DNA of 64,000 bases from a bacterium (GTDB lineage: Bacteria > Zhuqueibacterota > Zhuqueibacteria > Residuimicrobiales > Krinioviventaceae), in the NCBI GenBank assembly GCA_963675755.2, contig CAXXMD010000001.1:1-64000 (forward strand), read 5' to 3'. A model generated the notes under the pieces. The model did not search any database. It was not told the DNA's origin and saw nothing but the letters and a program-made list of their open reading frames with translations. Position numbers and translations under genes: made by a program. Below are positions 6,991 to 40,334 of this stretch, one piece after another (the stretch's first letter is position 1; every line of letters starts with the position of its first letter).

Positions 6991-7395
6991 TTGCAAAAAC
7001 GACCTGTTTCAGTTACAATCATTGCGTGGTATTTGTTGGTTACCAACGCACTTTCTATTATTTCTACAGCAATTTTTTTCAATGATCCTAAAGCAAATTC
7101 TTTTTTTAGTGCGTATTCCGTCCCTTTACCTGTGTAATATACGGTAATGAATGTTGGAATATTGATTTCCATAATATGTGCGATTGGGATGTTGAAAGGC
7201 TTGAATTGGTCGCGTGTGGTGTATTCAGTTTGGAGTGTTTTGGCATTAATTTATAGTTTAATTGTGGCACCCATGAAGCTTTTGCTGATTTTCAATTTAA
7301 TATTTTTAATAGTTATACTTTATTACCTGTTCAGACCTGTGGCAAACACATATTTTACGAACAAGGGGGATGCAAATGATCCGGCGGGTGCTTAG
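6991..7395 (+). pseudogene. Multi-TM membrane protein interrupted by an in-frame TAA at 7135-7137
   Basis: TTG start after AAGGGGTA; reads MQKRPVSVTIIAWYLL...PLPV*YTVMNVGILISII in frame with ORF 7147-7395. Confidence 0.65.
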
Positions 7396-16058: not shown

Positions 16059-18809
16059 TTATTTAACGAGGGTTGTTTTGTATCTTTTAATTGTATTGTC
16101 TGCTCTGAATTCAATGATGTAAATACCAGACGCAACCGGGAGGTTGTGCGAGTCGGTTCCATGCCAGTTGACCTGATAATATCCGGCAGGGTGTTCACGG
16201 TCAACCAGTGATGCTATTTTTTTACCCAGCAGATTGTACACACTGATATTGACATTTGCCTGACTTGCCAGTTGATATCTGATCAATGTTGACGCATTAA
16301 AGGGATTGGGGTAATTTTTATGCATATAGTGCTTGTCCGGTCCTGTGGTTTGAACATGGATCAAAGACGTGTATTTGAATGATCCGTCATGATCAATGAT
16401 TTTTAAACGATATGCATGCTCACCTGGGCCCGGATTGTCTTCTGTGAATGAATAGGTTTGACGTTCCGGTTGAGAGTCAAGTGGAACGAATCCCAAAATC
16501 TGGAACGAATTTTTGACTTTTTTCTCAATCTCAAATCCATATCCATGCAAAGAATGCTGAACCGACCATTCTAGTGTAATAGCATTATTTTCAAAATTGC
16601 CTGAAAACGACAACAGTTGCACCGGTACGGGATAAGAGTCAAGCTCGTTTATCCAGTCAGCAATTACCTGTGTGGCCTGCTCGTCTACAAGACTGGTGGC
16701 AATGGGAGGCATGCGGTTTTCATCCAGCGCCATCATGCGCAAATAAAGAATGGATTCTTCGGGGCTGCCGGGTTTAACTCTGGCAGCATTGGCGGCACCC
16801 AAATCACCAAAGTCTGGTATTTCATCAACAATCATCATTTCTTCGAGGCTGGTTGCAAAACGCAGGTCCATGTTTGAGCGTCCGCTGCTGTTGGGTTGAT
16901 GACAGAATGCGCAATTGGCATCGAGATATGAGCGGGCACGGTCAGATACATCTTGTGTTTCATCATTTATATCAACCAGTTGGGGCCAGTTTGTATAATC
17001 CTCCCCAATATCTTTTGTGAAAAGATTGATGTGATTGAGAGTGCGGAGCTGGTTATCCGTTACCTCACCATAATCGTGGTTTTTGTTAAGCTGACTGGTT
17101 TTGAATCCCAATACATAGCCGGATTCCGGCACATGGCAGGTCAGGCATTCGTTGCGGGAAGGATAGTGGTAAACCTGATCGTATTGCCCTCCGGGTGCAT
17201 CGCTGTCGGTAATGGTAAATGTAACATCCTTGGCATCTGTCAACAAGTTTGCTTCTGTCCCTGCCTGGTTCCATTCGTAGCTGAATCCATCCCACAACTC
17301 ACCATAGGGACGTTTAACCAGGAACCGGGTTTCTATCAATCGACGGCTTGTTGAATTGCCTTTTTCCATTTCCAAACTAAAGTTTTTCACCAAAACCGTA
17401 CCAGCCGGATATTCAAAGGGATTTTCTTGAGAGAATAAGAGTTGCTCGGAACCGGGGAGAGCAATATACCGGTCCTTGTCTGCATTATCTGACCAGAGAC
17501 GGGAATTTACAGAATAAGGAATAACTCCAGGAGAAACGGTACGGGTGTTCATGTCCGAATAAAATCCTGAAGAGGATATAGTTGATGGAACATCCCCGGG
17601 TGGGGGAGAATCCTGGCGGGCGATGATTTTATAAATATTGCCATTATAGCCTACTATATACAATTCCCCGGATTCGTCTTCTCCAAAACTGGTAATATGA
17701 GCGGGACTGGTTAATACCTGGTTTGAGGACAGTACATCTCGCCCTTCGTAATCATATTTCAGGGTCCATATTCTGCGGGATACATAATCGCCAAAGATGT
17801 AAAATCCATCCAGTTGGGGGAGAGATGTTCCGCGATATACATACCCACCGGTGACAGATTCGCCCAGTGTGTGACTGTATTCAAAAACCGGTGTATTGAA
17901 CTCCCATGGGTTGCAACCGGACTGGTAGCAGTGCAGGCCTTCTGTGATATTCCAACCAAGATTGCTGCCCTTGCCCACGATATCAATTTCTTCCCATTTA
18001 TCCTGACCTACATCACCACACCAGAGCTTACCATTAGCCCTGTCAAAGCTGAAACGCCAGGGATTCCGTAATCCCCAGGCATAGATCTCTTTTCGGAAGG
18101 AGTTATCACCCACCAGTGGATTGTCCGGTGGAATAGCGTATTCCAATCCGTCATCTTTATTGTCAACATCAATGCGCAGTATGCTTCCCAGCAGGGTGTA
18201 GCGGTTTTGCCCGTTGCCCCAGGGATCACCCGCACTGCCGCCATCACCAAGGCCGATATAGAGATACCCATCCTGGCCAAATTCGATCATTCCGCCATTG
18301 TGATTTGAGGCAGGCTGTTCTAATGCAAGCAAAATGCGCTCAGAGTTGGGATCAGCAATATTGGGGTCAGAAGAAACCTGGAACTCTGAAATTCTTGTGC
18401 TTCGTATTGTTGGATTGTAATGCACATAAAACAGACCGTTTTGCTCAAAATCGGGATGAAATGCCAAACCCAGCAGACCGGTTTCGCTGCTGCTGGATGC
18501 TACCTTGTCCCTAAGATCAATGAACTTTTCAAAATCAGAGGTGAGGGAGGCGTTATTGAAAACTTTGATAACGCCGGGTTTTTCAACAACAAATATACGG
18601 TCTGTTCCATCATGCGCATGCGTGAGATAGATGGGTGACGCAAAATTGAGATTGGTAAACACCTGTTCAAGGTCAAGATTGCCTACCTCGTCACCGGTGG
18701 ATGTGATGAGCAGAGACGTGTTGGGAGTACGCTCATTGATACCGTAAGGTTGTGAAAACGTAACAGTGACTGTTAACAATATATAAAGTATACTTTTTGT
18801 GATATACAT
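16059..18809 (-). CDS. Secreted PQQ-dependent sugar dehydrogenase (GSDH) fused to a diheme c-type cytochrome (SO2930-like) and T9SS/FlgD-like CTD
   Basis: GLLGLAFHP, NHNGG, GLRNPWRFSFD, DVGQ (GSDH); CLTCH, CAFCH and RMPP; C-terminal NYPNPFN. Confidence 0.88.
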   Translation of the reverse strand: MYITKSILYILLTVTVTFSQPYGINERTPNTSLLITSTGDEVGNLDLEQVFTNLNFASPIYLTHAHDGTDRIFVVEKPGVIKVFNNASLTSDFEKFIDLRDKVASSSSETGLLGLAFHPDFEQNGLFYVHYNPTIRSTRISEFQVSSDPNIADPNSERILLALEQPASNHNGGMIEFGQDGYLYIGLGDGGSAGDPWGNGQNRYTLLGSILRIDVDNKDDGLEYAIPPDNPLVGDNSFRKEIYAWGLRNPWRFSFDRANGKLWCGDVGQDKWEEIDIVGKGSNLGWNITEGLHCYQSGCNPWEFNTPVFEYSHTLGESVTGGYVYRGTSLPQLDGFYIFGDYVSRRIWTLKYDYEGRDVLSSNQVLTSPAHITSFGEDESGELYIVGYNGNIYKIIARQDSPPPGDVPSTISSSGFYSDMNTRTVSPGVIPYSVNSRLWSDNADKDRYIALPGSEQLLFSQENPFEYPAGTVLVKNFSLEMEKGNSTSRRLIETRFLVKRPYGELWDGFSYEWNQAGTEANLLTDAKDVTFTITDSDAPGGQYDQVYHYPSRNECLTCHVPESGYVLGFKTSQLNKNHDYGEVTDNQLRTLNHINLFTKDIGEDYTNWPQLVDINDETQDVSDRARSYLDANCAFCHQPNSSGRSNMDLRFATSLEEMMIVDEIPDFGDLGAANAARVKPGSPEESILYLRMMALDENRMPPIATSLVDEQATQVIADWINELDSYPVPVQLLSFSGNFENNAITLEWSVQHSLHGYGFEIEKKVKNSFQILGFVPLDSQPERQTYSFTEDNPGPGEHAYRLKIIDHDGSFKYTSLIHVQTTGPDKHYMHKNYPNPFNASTLIRYQLASQANVNISVYNLLGKKIASLVDREHPAGYYQVNWHGTDSHNLPVASGIYIIEFRADNTIKRYKTTLVK

Positions 18810-19440
18810 AGATTTACCCCTTTTGTTCTTTTTTCAATGTAAAAGAATCGTTGTAATGAATCAAGAGAATTCATTGTGAATAAATATTAATAGAACAATA
18901 TGCGGTAAATTGTTCCCCAAAGGTAACATTTACCACCTTAAAACTGTGCCAAAAATATGAAAATCTCTAACTAATTTTGAGAGAATAAAATTTTTTTTGA
19001 GACATTTTTTGAGCATGGTGAAGCTAACTTTAATGTCCGGTATTTATATTTCTATAATGAATGTTTTGTGCGCATAATTAGTGATTAATTGCGATTTTTG
19101 TGTTATATGGTGTGTATTTGTGTTATGGTTTTTTACGATATCTTGAAGTTGCAATGGGATTGAATTTTTTGGTCTGATTTGCTATATACGGGCATTTGAG
19201 TTGCGATAGTAAAAGTAGATTTGAAATAAAAATTCCCCATAGCGGGAATGCTCATTGACAACAACAACAACAGTAACCCAATAAAACAGTTGACTGTGAA
19301 TCAATCGCCGGACGGCAAGAGAATTTTTTTTCTCTTTGCATAGTTGTACTTTTGTATAGATATATTTTGTGTGGATTCATTATGTTTCAGGTGATTTGAA
19401 TAATATATGATGTGATTGATGATTTGGTGGTATTCTCTTG

Positions 19441-19648
19441 ACCGTCCAGCGTCGATTCCGGAAGGCTGTTTAGAATCACTCCCCCTCCATACGGCCGCAA
19501 GGCCTGCAATGTGCTACGCGAATTGGATGATTTTGTGAGATATGCCGTGCAACGAGTCAATTGCAGGCCTTGTGGTTGTTCTTGTTTTACAGTACCAAGT
19601 TACCCTTACCCAAAAAAAGCCCCGTTTCATGCCGGGGCTTTTTTTTTA
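19441..19648 (+). ncRNA. Candidate stand-alone structured sRNA (about 205 nt) with C-rich single-stranded motifs
   Basis: GC-rich island in an 840-bp intergenic gap; 20-bp stem 19491-19510/19560-19579 with three G-U pairs; own terminator; possible extended -10 TGGTATTCT at 19428-19436. Confidence 0.55.
19612..19648. terminator. Bidirectional intrinsic terminator
   Basis: A7-GCCCCG-loop-CGGGGC-T9. Confidence 0.88.
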
Positions 19649-20395
19649 TTAGCACTTTTTTGCAACATAAAAAATATTGCTGTAATATTCTGAATATTTT
19701 TTATAGATCTCTATTTCTTTTTCTTCCATTTTTAATACCTGCAAAACATCCTTGTTATCTTGATATTTTTCATACATGTATTGAATTCGCTCCTTTAAGG
19801 GATTATAATAATCGTCCCACCAGTCTGAAGGAGGTTCGATATGATATGAAATTGGATCATAACCCAATGCCTTTATCGTATCAAGATTGTTTGCAATGCT
19901 GGTCATTGGCGGATATATCTCTTGAAAGAATTGATGCAGTTCGTCAGGGATGTCATCTCTGGTCCAGGAAAGTTCTGAAACTGCTATAAAACCACCGGGT
20001 TTTAACAAGCGTTTCCATTCCTGAAATCCCTTTTCAAATCCAATAATAAAAATTGCACCTTCTACCCACAGTACATCAAAAGATTCATCCGGATAGTCAA
20101 GTTTGCACATGTCACCTTTTTGGATGGTGATTCTTTTTTCTAAACCTTTTTCCGTTACAGCTGTTTGTAACTGGTCAAGAAAAGGTTGGTGAAAATCCAA
20201 TGCGGTAATGTGTCCGTTACAAAGAGAAGCCAGGGTTATGGTTTGCTGCCCCGGACCACAGCCAATATCCAGAATTGTTGCATTGTCAATATTTACAGAT
20301 TGCCATGCTCTAGTTGTTGATTGTATACTACCGGGACCTTGTCTCGGCATATTTGAATGGGTTTCCAGAAAATATTGCCATTGTTTTTCGTCCAT
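19649..20395 (-). CDS. Class I SAM-dependent methyltransferase (PRQGPGS family)
   Basis: ILDIGCGPG motif I, GDM, FDVLWVEGAI, LKPGG. Confidence 0.92.
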   Translation of the reverse strand: MDEKQWQYFLETHSNMPRQGPGSIQSTTRAWQSVNIDNATILDIGCGPGQQTITLASLCNGHITALDFHQPFLDQLQTAVTEKGLEKRITIQKGDMCKLDYPDESFDVLWVEGAIFIIGFEKGFQEWKRLLKPGGFIAVSELSWTRDDIPDELHQFFQEIYPPMTSIANNLDTIKALGYDPISYHIEPPSDWWDDYYNPLKERIQYMYEKYQDNKDVLQVLKMEEKEIEIYKKYSEYYSNIFYVAKKC

Positions 20396-20399
20396 TATA

Positions 20400-20497
20400 A
20401 TTGTCCTTATACTCGTGAATCATCATTTTGGGATTTAATTCGCACTCGAGTTTTACCATCCCAAATCCTGATGACGGGGATGGTATCACAGGACAAT
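20400..20497 (-). promoter_or_regulatory. RBS-sequestering leader structure (putative translational attenuator)
   Basis: AUUGUCCU (20497-20490) pairs with AGGACAAU (20407-20400), enclosing two internal hairpins. Confidence 0.6.
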
Positions 20498-20524
20498 AAC
20501 CGATGTATTCATAAATGTAAACAT
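20486..20524 (-). CDS. Putative leader peptide MFTFMNTSVIVL
   Basis: GAAAGG RBS, ATG at 20524, TGA at 20488-20486; last codons overlap the anti-RBS strand. Confidence 0.55.
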   Translation of the reverse strand: MFTFMNTSVIVL

Positions 20525-20536
20525 ACAACCTTTCAG

Positions 20537-21004
20537 CTAGAAATAAATTTCATAAAATTGATAATTGGTTTTCTTCATTCCTAAAGCCTGATAAGTGCTT
20601 TGGGCAATTTGATTTTCATGGTCAACATATAGACGCAATCCGCGAACGTTTGTTTCGTTTTTTGCCAACTCCTCAGCTTTTTCATAGAGAGAAGAGAATA
20701 CTCCTTTTCTACGCCAATGAGGATCAATATAAACACTTTGGATCCACCAGAACAGCCCATCTCGCCAGTCGGTCCATTCAAAGGTGATCATCAGGCTGCC
20801 TATGACAGTTCCTGCTGATTCTGCAACCAGATAAAATCCAAATTGCGGATTTTGCATCAATCCCAATGCACCTTGCGTTACCGTTTCCTTGTTCAAAACA
20901 GTATTCTCGGTTTCGCTTGCCATATTGACATTAAATTGAGCAATAATTTCTGCGTCTGCCGGAACTCCTTTACGAACCAGGATATCAGATTCTTGTAATG
21001 TCAT
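20537..21004 (-). CDS. GNAT family N-acetyltransferase
   Basis: WWIQSVYIDPHWRRKGVF, LRLYVD.EN..AQ.TY..LGM. Confidence 0.92.
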   Translation of the reverse strand: MTLQESDILVRKGVPADAEIIAQFNVNMASETENTVLNKETVTQGALGLMQNPQFGFYLVAESAGTVIGSLMITFEWTDWRDGLFWWIQSVYIDPHWRRKGVFSSLYEKAEELAKNETNVRGLRLYVDHENQIAQSTYQALGMKKTNYQFYEIYF

Positions 21005-21043
21005 TTGAAAAAACTTTCGTTTGTATTTATTTATACCAGGATA

Positions 21044-21394
21044 TTAATAAATGTTTAATAGAGCGGCAAAACCTGCAAAAATTGCAATCACAATATAGAT
21101 GGCAAAGATAACCAATGAGATGATCATCAGGATTTTCATTATATTGAAAAAACTGCCCTGTTTTTCCAGAGCTAGTGCCATTGCGTTTTCATCATTTTGG
21201 TTTTGGAATGTACTGAAATAGTCGGCAGATTCACGCAACCGCAATCCGGAAATGATCATGGGTACGCCAATTAATGCGCCAATAATTGACAAGCACGTTA
21301 AACCGCCATAGACAATATAAAACATGCCCACAAAGCGCATATCTTTGATCATCCGGCCAACATTCTGTGTTTGAACTGGAGTTAAATTGTTCAT
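21044..21394 (-). CDS. DUF5362-like membrane protein
   Basis: MRFVG...IIGALIGVPMIISGLRLRESA pattern; GGAGG RBS. Confidence 0.7.
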   Translation of the reverse strand: MNNLTPVQTQNVGRMIKDMRFVGMFYIVYGGLTCLSIIGALIGVPMIISGLRLRESADYFSTFQNQNDENAMALALEKQGSFFNIMKILMIISLVIFAIYIVIAIFAGFAALLNIY

Positions 21395-21481
21395 AGTGGT
21401 GCCCTCCCTTGATTGAATTTTAAATACCCTTGGTATGGAAAGATATTAAAACCAAACGAGTCAAACAAGATAAAATTCAAT

Positions 21482-22171
21482 TTAATTTTCTATTTCAAAA
21501 TCCAGATTGTCAAAATAAACAATTGCATCTGCTTTTGTGCACAAACCCACTTTGCCAGAAGTAAAAGTGTTGTCGGTAAAATCGATAAATTTTTTATTAT
21601 CAAACCAGCATCGTATACGTCCCTTTTCATGAATTACTTTTAATCGCTCCCATTCATGAGGTTCAATTTTAGAAGCCCATACACTCTGTAGCAATCTTTT
21701 TTCTCCATTTTCTACCTTGTAAACTCGTAATCTTTCTTTTAGTGGATCAGAGAGACATGTATAGTAATTATTGGGATCCTGGTAATGCCATACGGGCCCA
21801 CCAGCCTGTTCCTCCTGGCCGTCTACCATTTTCAGTTCCATTTCAATATCTACATCATTGAACCATGAATTCTCCAGAATGGCAAGATGGAAATGGTTTC
21901 CAAGGCTTTTTTTCCCAAGTTGAGCAATTACATTTTTATGTTTTTTTGCTATGGTATCGGGTATTATTTGCCATGTACCAATTTTACCATTTCCTGTTTT
22001 TTCTATACTCCATTCCGGGGGTAGATTGCCGGTTTTGTTTTGATCAAAATTCAATTCTAATTCATTGATATTTGTTTTTACCATAGATTTTTGCATTTCA
22101 TTCTTTTTACTGCAAACCCAACTGGTAGATAAAAGACATAGAGCAATTATGATAGTTATTTTTTTATTCAT
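21482..22171 (-). CDS. DUF1080 / ConA-like family 16 glycoside hydrolase-type lipoprotein
   Basis: Signal with Cys; D.TFTSGKVGL.TKAD...YFDNL C-terminal motif. Confidence 0.75.
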   Translation of the reverse strand: MNKKITIIIALCLLSTSWVCSKKNEMQKSMVKTNINELELNFDQNKTGNLPPEWSIEKTGNGKIGTWQIIPDTIAKKHKNVIAQLGKKSLGNHFHLAILENSWFNDVDIEMELKMVDGQEEQAGGPVWHYQDPNNYYTCLSDPLKERLRVYKVENGEKRLLQSVWASKIEPHEWERLKVIHEKGRIRCWFDNKKFIDFTDNTFTSGKVGLCTKADAIVYFDNLDFEIEN

Positions 22172-22182
22172 TATAATTTTTC

Positions 22183-23673
22183 TTAATAATTGAGACTGAA
22201 TTGTACATCTAATAAAGACACTGATTTTTCAAAGTCATAATATGTATTAATCATTAATTCCAGTAAAGAACGACGATATTTAATATATGTATCCATAAAA
22301 TTCAATTCAATATCTTTGTGTCGTTCAATAATTTGAATCAAATCTTGTAGTGTTATTTGATTTTCTTTATATTGTTCAATACTCATGTTTAATAATTTTT
22401 TAGAAATGTTCGAGCTCTTTTCAAGATTCAGACAACGAGCTTGATAATCTTGTAGGTTTGTAAAAGCATTTATTATATTTTTTTGAATGTTTTCCTGTTC
22501 TTCCTGAATTTGTAAATTCCGCCTGCGAACATCAACCATTTCTGCTTGGATGGATGCTTTACGCTCACCCCAATCCCATAGTGGGATGTATGCATTGATT
22601 GTTGCGGAATTACTATTGTCATATTCATCCCATATTCTTTTAAAGCGCTCATCTTTTTTTTCCAGACCATAGGTTAACTCGAGGTTAACTTGAAATGCAT
22701 TTTCACCTTTTTGATCATCTACGTCGAGTTCTGAAAATCTTTTATATATGTTGAGTTGTTCTAAGCGAGGATTATTTTCGTAACCTAATTCAAGTGCGTC
22801 ATTCAGTTTAATTGGAACCGGAGTAACGTGAATTTCCGGTTTAATTATTAGTGAATCATTAATATTTATTCTCAATCGTTGTTTTATATTTGCTAATTCT
22901 CTACGTTTATCGCTGTTGTTTTCAAGCAGGTCTTCTGTCTCGTTTGTGATTTCCAGTTCTACCTGAATTCTTTCCATTTCATTTGATGGATTTTTTTCTG
23001 CATGCTGTTTTGCAATTTCCAAAGTTCTTTCAAGTATGTTTAATTGTTTATTAAAAATAGTTTCCGCAAAAACGAGTTCAAATGCATCATAATAATCGTC
23101 ACCAATATCTCTAATGAGCCTTACACGATCATCTATGTATTCCAGTTGATTATCTTGCAATGCGAGTTGTGCTCTTTCAAGATCATTTTTCAGTTCATTG
23201 GTTGTAAAAAAAGGTTGTTCATACTTGAAGTACATTCGATTATAAAAATCAACCTCCCGGTTACCATTGTCCCGTTGTTGATAGCGATACATTTTATAAT
23301 TCAGTGAAATATAACCGTTTGTGGGATATCCGAATAGAATAACAGGTTGACTGATGGATAACTCTGATTGCCAGCGTTGTGTGTTTTCTCGAACGATTTC
23401 ATCTCTATAGAGTGTTGAATTCCATTTATTTTCTGAAACCCGGCTGATATCCGGAGTTTGCAAATTCAAAAATACTTTGGACTTTAGGCCTGCCTGTCTG
23501 GCTTTCAGATCAAACATGGTTTTTTCGATCTCCATCTCGAGCTCTTTTATCCGATAGCTATTATTCAGGGCAATGTCTACAGCTGATTCCAAAGTAAGAT
23601 CTATCGTTTGTTTGGGTGCAGCTAAAATTGTATAATTAAATAAGACACAAAAAAAGAAAACCGCTTTTTTCAT
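22183..23673 (-). CDS. TolC-family outer-membrane efflux protein
   Basis: Signal peptide; LTLESAVDIALNNS, IPLWDWGERK, helical repeats. Confidence 0.85.
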   Translation of the reverse strand: MKKAVFFFCVLFNYTILAAPKQTIDLTLESAVDIALNNSYRIKELEMEIEKTMFDLKARQAGLKSKVFLNLQTPDISRVSENKWNSTLYRDEIVRENTQRWQSELSISQPVILFGYPTNGYISLNYKMYRYQQRDNGNREVDFYNRMYFKYEQPFFTTNELKNDLERAQLALQDNQLEYIDDRVRLIRDIGDDYYDAFELVFAETIFNKQLNILERTLEIAKQHAEKNPSNEMERIQVELEITNETEDLLENNSDKRRELANIKQRLRININDSLIIKPEIHVTPVPIKLNDALELGYENNPRLEQLNIYKRFSELDVDDQKGENAFQVNLELTYGLEKKDERFKRIWDEYDNSNSATINAYIPLWDWGERKASIQAEMVDVRRRNLQIQEEQENIQKNIINAFTNLQDYQARCLNLEKSSNISKKLLNMSIEQYKENQITLQDLIQIIERHKDIELNFMDTYIKYRRSLLELMINTYYDFEKSVSLLDVQFSLNY

Positions 23674-23737
23674 TTCCAACTCCTAATTGATTTCTCATTT
23701 TCTTGCTTAAAGATAGAAATCAATCATTAAAATTTAA

Positions 23738-25156
23738 TTAAAAAGCAGTTTTTTCTGGTTTTGTGGCTGGAAGAATTATCTCTACCCGGGTACCTTTATT
23801 TAATTCACTTTCTACATGAATTTCCCCCTGGTGTGCTTCCATGATCCTTTTACAGATGGAAAGACCCAAACCACTACTATGCATTTCACGACTTCTGGCT
23901 TTGTCTACTCTGTAAAACCGATCAAATATATGTGACAGTTCATCTTTGGGTATTCCTATTCCGTTGTCGCTAACAGTGATGATGATCTTTTGGTCAATAA
24001 TTTGAGTGGAAATTTTTATCTCTCCATTGGATGGCGTATATTTTATTGCATTGTCTATGATGTTGCTGAGAACCTGGCGAATTTTTTCAGGGTCCAGTAA
24101 TTGTTTAATGATTTTATCAGATGGATAATACTGTAAGGTTATTTCTTTTAAAGATGCTGAATTTTTATGAAATTGAATGACTTGAGACAAAAGTGAATTG
24201 ATATCCGTTTGACGAAGTTGAAGATAAGTTTTTTCTGCATCTATACGGGCCAGTGTTAACAAGTCATTAATGATTTTTTCCATAAATCCAATTTCCTGTA
24301 AACTACTGTACAGAGTGTTTTGGTATTCGTGAGTATCTCTGGGTTTACGAAGAGCAACTTCAATTTCACCGCGCATAATGGTTAGGGGCGTTCGTAGTTC
24401 ATGCGATGCGTCACCTGTAAATCTCTGTATAGATTCAATTCCCATTCTAATGCGTTTTATCATTTCGTTAAATGTTAGTGTCAGTTGCCCCAGTTCATCT
24501 TTTGGGTTTGGTGGCGCTGGTAATTCTTTATTTATATTTTTTAAGGTTATTGAGCGGGCTGCAGTTGTAAGATTGGTGATGGGTACAAGAGCCCGTTTTG
24601 CCAGAAACCAACCACCTATTCCTGCCAGAATTAGCATAAAGGGTATTAATAATATGCCATAAAGTCTAATACGTTCTAATATATTATTTGCATATATTGT
24701 TGAACGGCCTGTTATAATGTAAAATGTGTAACTTTTATTATGTTTATCATAAATGGTTGTCGGGGTTTTTAAAATATGGTATGAATAGCTATCTTTGGTT
24801 TTAATTATTTCTGAAGAAATAATGGTCTCATTGGGTGTATCTATATGAAATAATGGGGGGGTGTTTTTGGATTTTATTATTCTTTTTTTTGTATTATAAA
24901 TCTGATAGAATATACCATTTTCTTCAAACTGAAAATTTGAGCTGTGGTCTTTAATATAATCTTTATCCAGTTTTTTATCATCAATACGCATATGTTCATT
25001 TAGCCGTTCAGCTTTTTCTGCTAGTAATGCTTCCTGGTCATTATAGATCTCATTGGATATACCCCAATAAACAAAAATGCCAAATGTCACAAGGGCAATA
25101 AACATTACTATACTGTACCACAATAACAGTCGGAAGCTAAATGAATTAAAAGGCAT
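23738..25156 (-). CDS. CusS/CzcS-like sensor histidine kinase (2TM-HAMP-HisKA-HATPase_c)
   Basis: DASHELRTPLT, NIIDNAIKY, FDRFYRVDKARSR, GLGLSI. Confidence 0.92.
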   Translation of the reverse strand: MPFNSFSFRLLLWYSIVMFIALVTFGIFVYWGISNEIYNDQEALLAEKAERLNEHMRIDDKKLDKDYIKDHSSNFQFEENGIFYQIYNTKKRIIKSKNTPPLFHIDTPNETIISSEIIKTKDSYSYHILKTPTTIYDKHNKSYTFYIITGRSTIYANNILERIRLYGILLIPFMLILAGIGGWFLAKRALVPITNLTTAARSITLKNINKELPAPPNPKDELGQLTLTFNEMIKRIRMGIESIQRFTGDASHELRTPLTIMRGEIEVALRKPRDTHEYQNTLYSSLQEIGFMEKIINDLLTLARIDAEKTYLQLRQTDINSLLSQVIQFHKNSASLKEITLQYYPSDKIIKQLLDPEKIRQVLSNIIDNAIKYTPSNGEIKISTQIIDQKIIITVSDNGIGIPKDELSHIFDRFYRVDKARSREMHSSGLGLSICKRIMEAHQGEIHVESELNKGTRVEIILPATKPEKTAF

Positions 25157-25829
25157 CTGCAGGTCCTTCAATTTTATAACCAATACTTCGAACCGTTTTA
25201 ATCAAAGGGATTGCAAAAGGTTTATCAATTTTTTTGCGTAAAAAGTTAATATAAACATCAACTGCATTGGTATCAGGACTTTCGTTACGTCCCCAGATAT
25301 AGTCTTCAATTGCTTCACGGGACATTGCCCGACCTTGATTACGTGCTAATAATTCTAAAATTCTGAATTCAAGAGGAGAAAGTGATATTTGTTGTTCTTT
25401 GCGAGTTACCGTGTGATTATCTATGGAAATGATAAGGTCTGCTATTTGAAGTTTTTCAGGCTCTTCCCATTTATTTCGTCTTACCAAAGCCTGCATTCTG
25501 GCCAATAATTCTTCAAAGGCAAAAGGTTTTACTAAATAATCGTCTGCTCCTGAGCGAAGCCCTGAAACACGTTCTGAAATTGCATCTTTGGCAGTGAGAA
25601 ACAATACCGGTACCTTATTGCCTTCTTGACGGATTTGTTTTAGTAAAGTTAATCCGTCCATTTTGGGCATCATGATATCAAGAATAAGTATGTCAAATTC
25701 CTGGTCCCGAAGAATGATTAATGCTTCAATACCATTATATGCTGTAGCGACACTCCAATTTTCTTCTTCGAGCCCCTTTTTTAAAAATCCGACGACTTTG
25801 GGTTCATCTTCAACAATCAATACACGCAT
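25146..25829 (-). CDS. OmpR-family response regulator (CusR/CzcR-like)
   Basis: VEDE, LDIMMP, GADDYLVKPF, VDVYINFLRKKID. Confidence 0.94.
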   Translation of the reverse strand: MRVLIVEDEPKVVGFLKKGLEEENWSVATAYNGIEALIILRDQEFDILILDIMMPKMDGLTLLKQIRQEGNKVPVLFLTAKDAISERVSGLRSGADDYLVKPFAFEELLARMQALVRRNKWEEPEKLQIADLIISIDNHTVTRKEQQISLSPLEFRILELLARNQGRAMSREAIEDYIWGRNESPDTNAVDVYINFLRKKIDKPFAIPLIKTVRSIGYKIEGPADAF

Positions 25830-25883
25830 TTATTATCCGTATTTTTATGAATTGGAAGATAAGTTTATTTTATTAAAATTAGA

Positions 25884-26879
25884 TTAAAATTCTTTAACTG
25901 TCCACGATATTGTTTTACCAGCCATAAAGGGAACAACGTTTCCATAATTGTTCGGGATAATAAAATCAGATTTTTCAATCTCGATACTTTTGGGAAAGGG
26001 AGATATATTGTAGATTTTTTGAGCATTGTCTGAAACGAACCCTTGTAATTTATCTAGAGCGTTGTGTTTTTCAAAAAGTTCCGCAAGTACGGCAAGTGCA
26101 ACCGGGGCTGTAAAAACACCCGCAGCACAGCCAGCACATTCTTTTTTGTGCAACGGGTGAGGTGCAGAATCACTGCCAAACATGAGTTTGGGATGTGCAA
26201 TCAGCGCTGCCTGCAACAAGGCCTCTCTGTCATGAGGGAACTTGGCTATGGGTTTGCAAAACAGATGTGGAGATAATAATCCACCCGCAATATCATCCAG
26301 CGTGATAATCAGGTGCTGTAAAGTAACTGTGGCAAAAAGATTTTCATATTGGTCCAGCAATTCTACCGCGTCACGGGTTGTAATGTGCTCCATGATGATT
26401 TTGAGATCTGGAAAATTTTCAGCAAGCCATGCATAAGTACCCAGAAACTCGGATTCTCGATCCAGAACAAATCCATTGGTTTCTCCATGTACCAATAAGG
26501 GGATTTGTAACTCTTGCATGAATTCAAATGTAGAACGTCCCTGATCAAGTGAGCTGATTCCGGATTCGCTGTTTGTGGTTATCCCCGCAGGATAGAGTTT
26601 TATACCAATGATATGTTCTTTTGCGGTTTCAAGTTCATACTCACTGTATTCTCGAAAGAATAAAGTCATATAGGGGGTAAAGGTTTCACTGCCAATGGCA
26701 TGAATAATCTGGTCACGATAGGTCAATAGTTTATCTAAAGAATCTACAGGATCTAAAAGATTGGGCATAATAACAGCACCTGCAAAATGAGAAGCACTGA
26801 GGGGAGCGACAAGTTTGAGCATGTCTGCTTCACGCAGATGTAGATGCATATCCAATGGAGATTGTATAAAAATATTCAT
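25884..26879 (-). CDS. pyrC: Dihydroorotase, homodimeric (type II)
   Basis: [41 protein letters not shown]. Confidence 0.95.
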
Positions 26880-26946
26880 GTAGAATTCCCATTTTTTTTA
26901 ACAAAATTACTGATTTATGATTGAAAATTCAAGTTGTTTCAAGGAT

Positions 26947-27085
26947 AAAAAAAGGATGCCCGTCCAAATAGGGTATTGATGTTTTGGGGTAAGGGTTGGA
27001 CGGGCATGGGGGGTAAGTTGTTATATTTTACAGCAAATTTTATAATTTGCAGAAAAAATTTTAATTTTTTTTTGATTGGATTTGT
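26947..27085 (-). ncRNA. Candidate stand-alone C-rich sRNA (about 140 nt)
   Basis: Consensus promoter upstream, no ORF, 12-bp stem (27007-26996/26967-26956) with a C-rich 28-nt loop followed by CC-U7. Confidence 0.55.
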
Positions 27086-27212: not shown

Positions 27213-28436
27213 TTAAAGCGTTTTTGCCAGATTTAAAAATCCTATAAATGATTGATAAGCCATAAATAATGCGAATAAAAAAGTAATTCCGGTCATAATA
27301 TTAATGGACGTAGAATTTTTATGCTCATGGACAATCTTTTCCTTGTTGAGAAGTATAAGCAGAAATAAAACCAATAGTGGTAAAAACAATGCCTGTATGG
27401 CAAGAGAAATGATTTGGAGGAATACCGGCTTGCCACCAAAAATAGGGGCAATGAGCCCGGCTGCACTGAAAATAAAAGCCATGATCATAAAATGTGGAGC
27501 TTTGGGATCACGTGACAGACCAAAGAATTCTGATATAGTCCATGTGGAAACGAGAGCATTGGGGAATGCAGAAGAGAGCCCCGCTGCCATTATACCGACT
27601 ACAAACAAGGTTGCTGCAAATTTACCAAACAGAGGAACAAGTGTGTATGCCATATCGATTGCTTTTTCCACGTGAATTCCGCGAACATGTAATGTTGCAG
27701 CGGCACCAGCCATAACCACTGCTGAAACAACAAAAACTAATACACCAGTAACAATAGCATCCTTGTTGGCGTGTTTCAGGTCATTGATAGTCCAGCCCTT
27801 GTCCATGACTACGAACGAGCGCATTACAACTACACTCCCAGCCAGAGTGGTACCAACCATTGCGGCTGCAATCATGCTGCCGCCTTGCGGTACACTGGGT
27901 ATAAATCCTTTTGCAAAGCTCATAGCAGAAGGATGCGCATAAAACAAGTTGATTATAAAACTCACACCCAGTACCGTGACAAAGATAATCAATACACGTT
28001 CAAAAATTGAATATTTGCCCATTATAATCAGTAAAAAAATGAACGTGCACCAAATGATGCTGGAAAGTAAAAAGTTCATACCGGTCCATGATGCAAACGC
28101 TTCGGAGACAATTCCCAATACACCAATATTGGATGTAAATTGACTGACCACAACAGCCAGGACGATATAAAATCCTGCAACCGGGCCAAAATGCTCTCGG
28201 GTTAATGCTACAAAGGTTTTTCCTGAAGCAAAGGTCAGTCTGCTAACAGAGCCTATCAGTACCCAGAAAAAAAGGCAGGACAGAAACAGCGTCCACATTA
28301 AACTCATACCATGTTCAGCACCTGCTACCACCAGAGAAGATACGCTACCTGTACCGATTGTTGCGCCAATCATAAAAATTGCCGGACCATAAGAAACAAT
28401 TGTGTCTTTGAATTTGGTAAGGAAAGAGTTTTGCAT
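27213..28436 (-). CDS. NRAMP-like (APC superfamily) transporter
   Basis: About 11 TM segments; GPAIF..GATIGTGS, AAMVGTT, AAGLSS; lacks canonical DPGN. Confidence 0.8.
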   Translation of the reverse strand: MQNSFLTKFKDTIVSYGPAIFMIGATIGTGSVSSLVVAGAEHGMSLMWTLFLSCLFFWVLIGSVSRLTFASGKTFVALTREHFGPVAGFYIVLAVVVSQFTSNIGVLGIVSEAFASWTGMNFLLSSIIWCTFIFLLIIMGKYSIFERVLIIFVTVLGVSFIINLFYAHPSAMSFAKGFIPSVPQGGSMIAAAMVGTTLAGSVVVMRSFVVMDKGWTINDLKHANKDAIVTGVLVFVVSAVVMAGAAATLHVRGIHVEKAIDMAYTLVPLFGKFAATLFVVGIMAAGLSSAFPNALVSTWTISEFFGLSRDPKAPHFMIMAFIFSAAGLIAPIFGGKPVFLQIISLAIQALFLPLLVLFLLILLNKEKIVHEHKNSTSINIMTGITFLFALFMAYQSFIGFLNLAKTL

Positions 28437-33480: not shown

Positions 33481-34267
33481 ATGAAAATTAAAAAATATTT
33501 AATCATACCCATTCTGTTTCTGATTCTCTGGGGTTGTGAGAACAGATCTGCAATTGTGCAGCCCAATCAAGAAATGCAAACCTATCCGGCAATCAATACG
33601 GTATTGTCACAAAAAGAAATTGACAAATTGCAACGTTCATTTCTGGCAAAATATCCTGAAATGAGCACAACAACCTTTGATGAATATGGATTTTATCAGT
33701 ATGTCGCACAAAAGACCTGATACAAACGAGCCCCTTTGTATGGGATAAAACGTCAGGCCATTGATATGGCAATATCCTTTATTCTCGAAAATACTGAATT
33801 TTTCCATTTGGAAGACAAAAAAGAGTTGTTATTTGATAATGCACGCGTTTACGGCGATCAATGGATTATTACTTTGCAGCAACAGAAACAGTCGGTGTTC
33901 CGGTATATCATAATTTAATACATGTATATACAAGTTATAATGGAGTTAATGCTATCAGCGGGGGTTTTTTATCAAAACATTACAGTGCCTGAAGCACCTC
34001 CTTCTTGATCAAGAAGCCATCGCAAATAAAATTGTTGGTTATGAATTTATCTTTTATTGTTGGGGTCCTGTAAATGTAGTGTTGGATAAAGATATGATGG
34101 GCACAGAACACCAGTTGGTTTTGTATCCGTTGCGAAAGGAAAATTATCGACAGATCCATCTTGCCTGGCAGATTCCGTTGACCGTATCAAACAGCTTTGA
34201 ATTCTTGTTGTTTGTTGATGCAATTACTTTTGAGGTGTTGGCAGTTGAACCGTTGTTTATTTGCTGA
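33481..34267 (+). pseudogene. Hypothetical lipoprotein with PepSY/propeptide-like C-terminus, frameshifted
   Basis: Lipobox LWGC; fragments 33481-33720, 33736-33918, 34079-34267; LAWQI...FVDAITFEVL. Confidence 0.5.
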
Positions 34268-38745: not shown

Positions 38746-40334
38746 ATGAAAAAAGTATTACTGGTTTTATGCGTGTTTTTAAATTTTGCAGTTGTTCAGG
38801 CGGGTACCTCTTTTTCTGTCATGGATTATGGTGCCAAAGGAGACGGAAATACTCTGGATACCCAGGCGATCCAAAAGACAATTGATGCTGTAGCAGAGAA
38901 TGGAGGTGGTACGGTTTACCTTCCGTCAGGCACTTATTTGTCTGGTACAATTTTTTTTAAAAGTCATGTCAGTTTATATCTGGAAGCGGGTGCCACTTTA
39001 CTGGGCAGCACAAATCTGGATGATTATCCGGTAACCATATGTGAATACCGGTCTTATACGGATAATTATACCGTGCGCAGCTTGATTTATGCCGAAAAAG
39101 TTGAAAATGTTTCTATTCTGGGACGTGGTACTCTGGATGGCCAGGGTGCGGCTTTTAAAGATCGTCGTACCAAAGAAAAATCCATACAAAGATCGTCCGT
39201 ATATGATCAGAATGATTGAATGCAAGGACGTAACGGTTAGGGATATAACAATCGTCAATTCTCCCATGTGGGTACAGCACTATATTGCTTGTGATGATTT
39301 GCTGATTGACGGGATTACCGTCAGTAGTTTTGTAGCAGGAAATAATGATGGCATTGATGTTGACAGTTGTCATCGTGTTCGGATTGCCAATTGTGATATT
39401 TACAGTGGTGATGATGCTATTGTGTTAAAAGCAACATCGGCCCGTGCCTGTAAAGATGTTACGGTAACCAACTGTGTATTGTCAACACATTGTAATGCAT
39501 TCAAACTGGGTACCGAATCCAATGGCGGATTCCAGAATATCACTTTTAGTAACAGCACCGTGTTTGATACCAGGTTATCTGCCGTTGCTCTTGAAATGGT
39601 TGATGGCGGTTTGCTGGAGCGTGTAACGGTTAACAATATTGTGCTCAACAATGTGGGTAATGCAATATTTATCCGTTTTAGGGAACCGTGCACGTCCGTT
39701 TTTGTCAAAAGGTCCTGGCGGATCACAGGGAACCTGGGAACGAAAAGCCGAACTTGAACCTCCCGGTATGGGCGCGTTGCGCAAGGTTGTCATCTCGAAT
39801 ATGCAGGGAATTGATGTAGGACCTGTGGGTTGTTCCATCACCGGTTTACCCGGCTATGATGTAGAGGATGTAACCATTTCCAATATCAATCTGGAATGTG
39901 TTGGCGGCGGTACAGCTGATATGATTGATCGGGAAATTCCGGAAAAAGAAGATGCCTACCCCGAGTTCAAAATGTTTGGTGAATTGCCGGCATATGGATT
40001 TTATGTACGTCATGTTGATGATATAAAATTTGACAATATAGAGCTGACATACAAGAATGACGATGTTCGTCCTGTTTTTGTTTTTGATGATGTTAAAAAT
40101 CTGGATCTGTTTGATGTTGACGGTGAATTGGACGCAACAGCACCTGCATTTATGATTATGAATAATATTGATGGTGCTTTTGTGCATGGCAACCGTCCCA
40201 CACGAAATATGGGCGTGTTTATTAAAGCAGAATCTGCTAAAAAAGTAATGGTTATGAACAATGATTTATTGAATGTAAAAACTGTTTTGGATAAATCAGA
40301 TGCTGTGAAAAAAGAAGATATTGTAATAAAATAA
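38746..40334 (+). pseudogene. GH28 polygalacturonase-like protein, split by two frameshifts
   Basis: DYGAKGDG..LDT.AIQ, NNDGID, GDDAIVLK, KLGTES, PAYGFYVRH. Confidence 0.88.

Follow-up and report, generated by a model that had tools for sequence, protein, structure and literature searches.

We analysed the first 64 kb of contig C1 (the window) of a bacterial genome, G000, which comprises 6.48 Mb in three contigs with 39% G+C and is 98% complete. Two intergenic regions of the window, here called locus A and locus B, carry the same 10-nt word, ACCCTTACCC, at 19602-19611 on the + strand and at 26996-26987 on the - strand. The initial annotation had proposed that both encode small RNAs (sRNAs) of one undescribed family, which would use this word to block Shine-Dalgarno (SD) sites. 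We arrived at a different reading, to which we give a probability of about 0.55: the two loci would be separate, unrelated elements, locus B a stand-alone sRNA of ~140 nt and locus A the 3′ domain of a block of ~370-520 nt, and the word that they share would be coincidental. Sequences were compared with a genome of the same genus (G001), a genome from a different genus within the family (G017, whose locus is L031) and a metagenome contig (L026). Locus A lies in an 840-nt spacer between two - strand genes, and locus B lies between pyrC and a transporter gene:

16059-18809, - strand: gene for a pyrroloquinoline quinone (PQQ)-dehydrogenase/dihaem-cytochrome protein with a type IX secretion system (T9SS) tail, on one side of the locus A spacer
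19649-20395, - strand: S-adenosylmethionine (SAM) methyltransferase gene, on the other side of that spacer and convergent to locus A
25884-26879, - strand: pyrC, 68 nt downstream of locus B
27213-28436, - strand: NRAMP transporter gene, upstream neighbour of locus B

Conservation and relatedness of the two loci

The window aligned with the same-genus genome at a mean identity of 0.90. When blocks of at least 97% identity to G001 over 150 nt were sought, loci A and B were the only ones free of long open reading frame (ORF) cover, with bounds at this threshold of 19240-19653 and 26887-27064; three further blocks mapped as intergenic sit under ORFs of 62, 104 and 196 aa. Both loci were more conserved than their flanking genes. 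None of 4227 Rfam families reached its gathering score in the window, and at the two loci only terminator-like noise appeared at E values up to 10; no family reached the gathering score in L026 or L031. The initial annotation had recognised neither locus as a named family. Taken together, sequence conservation supports the view that both loci are real non-coding units that behave like functional elements.

The features on which a common family had been proposed are present. Reading and search both placed the 10-mer at the two loci, and it is followed in each by an A-run (AAAAAAA at the 19602-19611 site, CAAAAC at the 26996-26987 site). A C-run stands at the foot of a stem, directly 5′ of it, in both units (CUCCCCCUCCAU at 19479-19490 and CUUACCCCCCAU at 27017-27006), both units terminate in a hairpin plus U-run, and both contain CCGUCCA (19442 on the + strand, 26997-27003 on the - strand), a motif that occurs 7 times within the window as CCGTCCA. 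The 10-mers and C-runs are predicted to be accessible, with mean unpaired probabilities of 0.83-0.94 for any assumed 5′ end of locus A; over the C-rich motifs of both loci the predicted values span 0.83-0.98.

The relationship between the two loci did not bear out the proposal. The position of the 10-mer differs, being in the terminator loop in locus B and after the hairpin in locus A. Run with filters off, the locus B covariance model scored 9.6 bits on locus A (E 0.12), aligning the C-tract and the terminator and not the 10-mer, and the locus A model scored 13.8 bits on locus B through a local match over the shared word only. Genome-wide searches with each model found one locus in G000 and one in G001, and neither model found the other locus. 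The 10-mer is kept in G001, where the loci as a whole are ~100% identical, and is not kept in the locus B relatives outside the genus, where it is replaced by ...GAGCCCCGGUAAGACU... in L026 and by ...AAGUCCCGGUAAAACU... in G017; for locus A, none of 41 other genomes of the order contained a relative. With no cross-detection, a different order of elements and the word lost in L026 and G017, the claim of a sibling family defined by ACCCUUACCC and conserved in relatives was not upheld: the loci are not detectably related, and these comparisons give no evidence of common descent.

One of the ORF-covered blocks deserves mention on its own account. At 34079-34267 on the + strand, inside a 1.1-kb gap of the ORF map, a 62-codon frame lies in a block ~97% identical in G001 and is possibly an unannotated small protein.

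Extent and strand of locus A

The elements of locus A are as follows:

19125-19648, + strand: conserved block of ~520 nt, non-coding, 97-98% identical in G001
19232-19249, strand unassigned: 6-bp hairpin in which G000 and G001 differ by a compensatory double change (U-A to C-G, pair 115/130) and by three loop changes
19284-19324, + strand: 5′ arm of a predicted long-range helix (inverted repeat), partner of 19432-19471
19387-19479, - strand: 30-codon frame that opens with GUG immediately 3′ of GGAGGGGGA (the C-run in reverse complement), part of a 57-aa frame
19428-19436, + strand: possible extended -10 element, TGgTATTCT, from sequence reading; transcription would start at ~19441-19443
19432-19471, + strand: 3′ arm of the long-range helix, overlapping the proposed 5′ end at 19441
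19479-19490, + strand: C-run CUCCCCCUCCAU, including CCUCC as in the 16S anti-SD; predicted unpaired probability 0.88-0.94
19491-19579, + strand: long hairpin of 20 consecutive pairs enclosing 49 nt, with three G-U pairs (19493, 19494 and 19497)
19600-19611, + strand: tandem UUACCC UUACCC, which holds the 10-mer at 19602-19611, between hairpin and terminator; predicted unpaired probability 0.86-0.94
19612-19648, both strands: bidirectional intrinsic terminator, A7-GCCCCG...CGGGGC-U9, with 13-nt arms that are 100% complementary, 1 nt from the methyltransferase stop at 19649

The 208-nt unit delimited by the initial annotation (19441-19648) turned out to be the 3′ part of this block, conservation extending ~300 nt further upstream. 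Per 100-nt bin, identity to G001 was 0.93-0.98 in the block, 0.84-0.91 in the flanking genes and 0.54-0.72 in the remaining spacer. The differences seen in G001 recurred in DNA contigs of a second organism, and the locus is single copy. Beyond the genus, BLAST over 40 relatives matched only the terminator, the covariance model of locus A found none of its kind among 41 other genomes of the order, and phage and plasmid collections gave no match. Locus A is most likely the 3′ domain of a larger, genus-specific block and would form a structured + strand RNA that ends at the shared terminator. Upstream of the 18809 gene, where the spacer has otherwise diverged, there is also a 36-nt island (18925-18960) identical in G001, which has TGGCAC on the - strand and no -12 GC element.

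Base pairing favours the + strand. The + strand consensus fold contains 161 pairs, none of them broken between the two genomes, with one compensatory and two wobble changes. On the - strand, only 13+2 pairs of the 19491-19579 stem can form, the three G-U pairs becoming C-A mismatches. The one-sided changes in the long-range helix (19322 A>G and 19465 G>A) keep + strand pairing and would break pairing on the - strand.

The alternative that survives best is that locus A is not a + strand sRNA and instead consists of - strand material, or is a DNA-level regulatory region bounded by an inverted repeat. The - strand version would be a small RNA ending at the 19249-19232 hairpin and its U-run, the 30-codon frame behind GGAGGGGGA, or both. 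That hairpin looks like a terminator, bears the compensatory change and has a U-run on the - strand only; the strong terminator at 19619-19648 is that of the - strand gene; and the two strands are nearly equal in minimum free energy and z-score (-67.0, z -3.2 for the + strand; -66.5, z -2.6 for the - strand). Set against these points, the G-U pairs of the 20-bp stem and both wobble changes of the long-range helix fit the + strand only, and the promoter scan returned no - strand promoter in locus A. None of its small ORFs was convincing, all candidate frames but two being interrupted by an indel between the genomes, and the 30-codon peptide differs in G001 by one synonymous and one non-synonymous change, as read from the alignment. 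In the DNA-level version, the ~19-bp inverted repeat 19306-19324 / 19432-19451, the inner part of the long-range helix, which flanks an AT-rich 106 bp, might serve divergent promoters or an invertible switch, for example. Neither an inverted form nor an inversion joint was seen at locus A in the DNA contigs of four runs, from which rare variants drop out. We consider it unlikely, on balance, that locus A is - strand material or a DNA-level element.

The + strand assignment faces difficulties of its own, which weigh against our reading. The promoter scan found no + strand site in the spacer 18810-19648, its sole match (18766-18794) lying inside the neighbouring gene. In single-genome folds, the differences between the genomes break three + strand pairs compared with two - strand pairs, which does not separate the strands. 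The terminator also serves the - strand gene and is therefore not proof of a + strand RNA. Finally, locus A was compared with one close relative and locus B among four sequences, too few for a proper covariation test. The ends of locus A, its strand and the RNA nature of the upstream 300 nt are inferred from sequence.

Locus B, its relatives and pyrC

Locus B is the more compact of the two and consists of the following elements:

27119-27091, - strand: sigma-70-type promoter, TTGACA-17-TATAAT (12/12), identical in G001
27085-26947, - strand: predicted stand-alone sRNA of ~139 nt, its start placed from the promoter and its end at the U-run
27017-27006, - strand: C-rich tract CUUACCCCCCAU, adjoining the terminator stem on its 5′ side; predicted unpaired probability 0.83
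27007-26956, - strand: terminator hairpin with a 12-bp stem (AUGCCCGUCCAA/UUGGACGGGCAU) and a 28-nt loop that holds the 10-mer (26996-26987)
26953-26947, - strand: U7, 3′ of the terminator stem

The unit also contains a 7-bp AU-rich hairpin, its fold has a z-score of -6.2, and it is near-identical in G001. No frame is conserved between G000 and G001, and the + strand frame opposite the unit appeared shifted between them in the alignment. Having both its own promoter and its own terminator, locus B is most likely a stand-alone sRNA gene, and this part of our reading is fairly secure as a prediction from sequence.

Searches with the covariance model of locus B revealed relatives outside the genus. 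The metagenome contig L026 carries one that scored 102 bits, directly upstream of pyrC, and G017 carries another at 46.6 bits (E 1e-4 genome-wide), which rose to 94.8 bits with a model of the core. All four family members have an A-rich run and then a C-rich, G-poor tract directly 5′ of a large-loop terminator stem; the tract CUUACCCCCCAU aligns with UCCCCUCUCACACCCC in L026 and CCCCUCCCUCACCCCC in G017. The stem GCCCGUC/GACGGGC is kept in all four, with C>U changes that yield G-U pairs on the RNA strand only, and the C-run in the terminator loop is likewise kept throughout. In L026 and G017 the promoter, TTGACT-17-TAATTT/TATTTT, lies further upstream of the unit. The distribution was narrow: at 29 pyrC loci from named genome contigs there was no locus B relative beyond the G001-like record, and among 19 genomes of the family the core model gave strong matches only in G000, G001 and G017. 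Core-model matches at 24-27 bits were ordinary terminators and were discarded. On the sequences compared, the locus B family appears small and lineage-restricted, and C-richness 5′ of the stem appears to be its conserved feature.

The relatives in L026 (2415-2640) and L031 (1640-1850, - strand) are ~300 nt long, with a longer 5′ part that is absent from G000 and G001. This shared 5′ part contains a conserved G-rich box, GCCGUAC..GGGGCGGAGCUG...ACGGC, and had no Rfam match.

The position of the unit raises the alternative that locus B acts in cis, as a leader or attenuator of the pyrC gene found 68 nt downstream of it on the - strand, and is not a free sRNA. In three of the four family members (G000, G001 and L026) the unit stands directly upstream of pyrC in the same direction, and in G001 the stretch from terminator to pyrC is likewise conserved. 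Pyrimidine-gene leaders, that is, PyrR-binding attenuators and those of enterobacterial pyrBI/pyrC, are similarly placed directly upstream of the gene, with a terminator between promoter and gene. In G017, however, the unit is unlinked from pyrC, lying ~4.5 kb away with a convergent ORF behind it; the pyrC genes of G017, L026 and L027 have a conserved promoter-like box of their own; and nothing like locus B lies upstream of pyrC in G014 and G005. For these three reasons we read locus B as a free-standing sRNA and not as a pyrC attenuator. In addition, Rfam gave no match of locus B to PyrR-binding or other leader families, and no alternative antiterminator pairing was seen. A leader function appears quite improbable to us.

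Two observations concern pyrC itself. In L024, L026 (2745-2790) and L027 (60-100), a box GGTTTT(C/T)ATTGCTTCATAT(T/C)AAAAAAAT lies 40-60 nt upstream of the gene and is probably the pyrC promoter in these three relatives; it is absent in G000 and G001. When the pyrC gene of the window (25884-26879) was searched, most of the named genome contigs returned, apart from the G001-like record, were metagenome-assembled genomes of Campylobacterota at 51-67% identity, and the class II dihydroorotase that it encodes may be of foreign origin.

The shared word, ribosome sites and known regulators

The 10-mer did not stand out as a special word. The genome contains 12 exact copies, compared with 6.4-6.7 expected (Poisson P 0.03-0.04); a crude ORF map assigns 9 of the 12 to coding DNA, and inspection of the sites showed 4 of the 12 to be intergenic. 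The density of TTACCC in spacers does not exceed that in genes. Within the window, 259 distinct 10-mers are common to different intergenic regions; four of these have at least six G/C, and the other three of the four are plainly accidental. In a window of 64 kb, a GC-rich 10-mer common to two intergenic regions is thus expected by chance, and the case cautions that such a word is not to be taken as a family signature without conservation in relatives. As part of the overall reading given above, the best explanation of the shared 10-mer would be a coincidence between two C-rich, G-poor sequences.

Two observations pull the other way. Allowing at most one mismatch, the window holds six matches to the 10-mer compared with 2.13 expected, and none of 100 shuffles reached six; this excess, like the genomic one, includes the discovery pair of copies. 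A third intergenic copy, at G000:C3:2814721, sits in the loop of a conserved hairpin, where 13 nt are identical to the locus B loop. Some link through the word is therefore conceivable. The spacer that holds the third copy has the following layout:

G000:C3:2814700-2814815 (L091 800-915), outside the window, 98% identical in G001: hairpin AUCGGGC...GCCCGAU, then a bidirectional terminator

Its loop contains CAACCCUUACCCC, the 13 nt in common with locus B, and over a longer stretch 19 of 21 positions match with one bulge. On the - strand the spacer probably belongs to the leader of a T9SS-cargo gene, with a 10/12 promoter upstream, and the hairpin might be either a target site or a third member of the family. 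The 13-mer match (C3:2814719) is statistically unremarkable, because some 13-mer match in the genome also arose when the locus B core was shuffled, in 98% of 2000 cases, and we set it aside as a signal.

Other look-alikes were rejected. The site C3:2819568 has the same 12-mer, CTTACCCCCCAT, in a part that is not conserved in G001; C1:139185 belongs to the 3′ untranslated region (3′-UTR) of a gene; and C3:2482013, a divergent promoter region, has no terminator. We record two resemblances of layout outside the window. The 3′-UTR at G000:C1:139180-139290 (L064 580-700), whose gene ends ...KRKKWNMFGDLD, is laid out like locus A, with a C-run ending in CCCAU, a GC-rich stem and then an A-run and terminator. 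At G000:C2:2039130 on the - strand, CAUACCCCCCAUG lies directly 5′ of a strong terminator in a spacer, a layout that resembles the locus B core.

As to the ribosome sites, the 3′ end of the 16S rRNA reads ...CACCUCCUUUCU, and AGGAG and GGAGG are 16-21-fold enriched before the crude ORF starts, consistent with canonical SD use. At the ribosome binding site (RBS) position, GGGGTA occurs in 66 of 4845 ORFs, compared with 1106 for GGAGG/AGGAG, so that GGGGUA(A), which the initial annotation had taken as the ribosome site used here, belongs to a small minority. Of the three G-run sites cited in the window, only AAAAGGGGTAAATCTATG, before the 18809 gene, stood: a canonical AGGAGG stands 8 nt upstream of the ATG at 38746, where GGGTA is only spacer, and the TTG at 6991 opens a frame of only 48 codons. 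About 274 of the 4845 ORFs (5.7%) have a C-terminal T9SS sorting domain, and GGGGTA(A) is not enriched before these cargo genes (2/274, compared with 64/4571 other ORFs). As a separate observation, GGGG is found in 22% of the T9SS-cargo ORFs compared with 11% of other genes, and GGAGG/AGGAG in 34% compared with 22%. In a duplex-energy scan of four seeds against 3681 start regions, all of + strand genes, pairing was no better than with shuffled seeds.

No match to Hfq was detected in G000, which is 98% complete. Since the genome is without detectable Hfq, a C-rich seed is the most economical guess for the action of locus B: its exposed C-rich tract might pair with G-rich stretches of mRNA, the SD region included, and might do so independently of Hfq in the manner of RsaE/RoxS. 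A bolder arrangement would unite locus A, locus B and the hairpin at G000:C3:2814700-2814760 in one Hfq-independent circuit, in which exposed UUACCC(C) loops of the sRNAs would pair with GGGGUAA sites in T9SS-cargo gene leaders; independently of this, locus A may represent a new class of structured RNA, ~370-520 nt long. Two pairings would fit, namely the RBS of the 18809 gene and the 13-nt match between the locus B loop and the loop of the second T9SS-cargo leader hairpin. We regard this arrangement as speculative and rather improbable.

Slightly less credible still is the proposal that a single family, defined by ACCCUUACCC, has loci A and B as sibling members, both encoding trans-acting sRNAs that repress genes with GGGGUA(A) sites. 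It can point to the predicted accessibility of both 10-mer copies and the A-run after each, to the six near-copies compared with 2.1 expected in the window, to AAAAGGGGUAAAUCUAUG at the start of the gene divergent from locus A, and to the third intergenic copy, which lies next to another T9SS-cargo gene in the loop of a conserved hairpin. Arguing against it are the absence of the word from locus B relatives outside the genus, the failure of the two models to cross-detect, the genomic count (12 copies, ~6.5 expected) with most copies within ORFs, the scarcity of GGGGTA at RBS positions and its lack of enrichment before T9SS-cargo genes, the seed-to-start-region energies equal to those of shuffled seeds, and the frequency of 13-mer matches among shuffles of the locus B core. 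That the C-rich tracts are protein binding sites, the RNAs being sponges for a protein that binds C-rich sequence or UUACCC and not carriers of pairing seeds, would agree with the several predicted exposed C-rich motifs per RNA and with a terminator stem whose sequence, beyond its structure, is kept across three lineages, and it is very improbable: each RNA has only a few motif copies (2-3), the analysis identified no candidate protein, and CsrA, the one global RNA binder found in G000, recognises GGA motifs.

All in all, these results indicate that loci A and B, as separate and unrelated elements, are ordinary, previously undescribed sRNA candidates, and that the shared word and the GGGGUA-type ribosome sites give no support for an anti-SD family. 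If confirmed, the two would be the first small RNAs to be described from an uncultured bacterial lineage without detectable Hfq, and would provide a further independent example of regulators with C-rich seeds beyond Firmicutes and Alphaproteobacteria.

Among known systems, RsaE/RoxS of Firmicutes is an Hfq-independent sRNA that pairs with G-rich stretches of mRNA through several C-rich regions left unpaired; the use of such exposed seeds is a mechanism known for RoxS and for the CCUCCUCCC loops of the cuckoo RNAs. Both loci similarly have several C-rich regions predicted to be unpaired. Unlike RsaE, neither locus matched the RsaE family of Rfam up to E 10, and the lineage, T9SS-bearing and uncultured, is a different one; the architecture of locus B also departs from that of RsaE/RoxS in that its C-tract abuts the terminator and its 28-nt terminator loop carries a C-run. 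The alphaproteobacterial cuckoo RNAs are built of 2-4 hairpins side by side, CCUCCUCCC occupying the loop of each. They are alike in having an unpaired, anti-SD-like C-rich motif, and in that beyond the genus only the motif is conserved (PMC4615179). In contrast, CCTCCTCCC had 0 matches on both strands of the whole window, and the C-run of locus A lies in a linker and not in a loop. The pyrimidine-gene leaders discussed above differ from locus B in the absence of an Rfam match and of linkage to pyrC in G017. Lastly, a generic intergenic sRNA gene has, like locus B, a sigma-70 promoter and an intrinsic terminator, is short and is conserved above its flanks, with no frame conserved in a same-genus genome and a fast-evolving 5′ end; from such a gene the candidate at locus B would differ not in kind but merely in having been undescribed.

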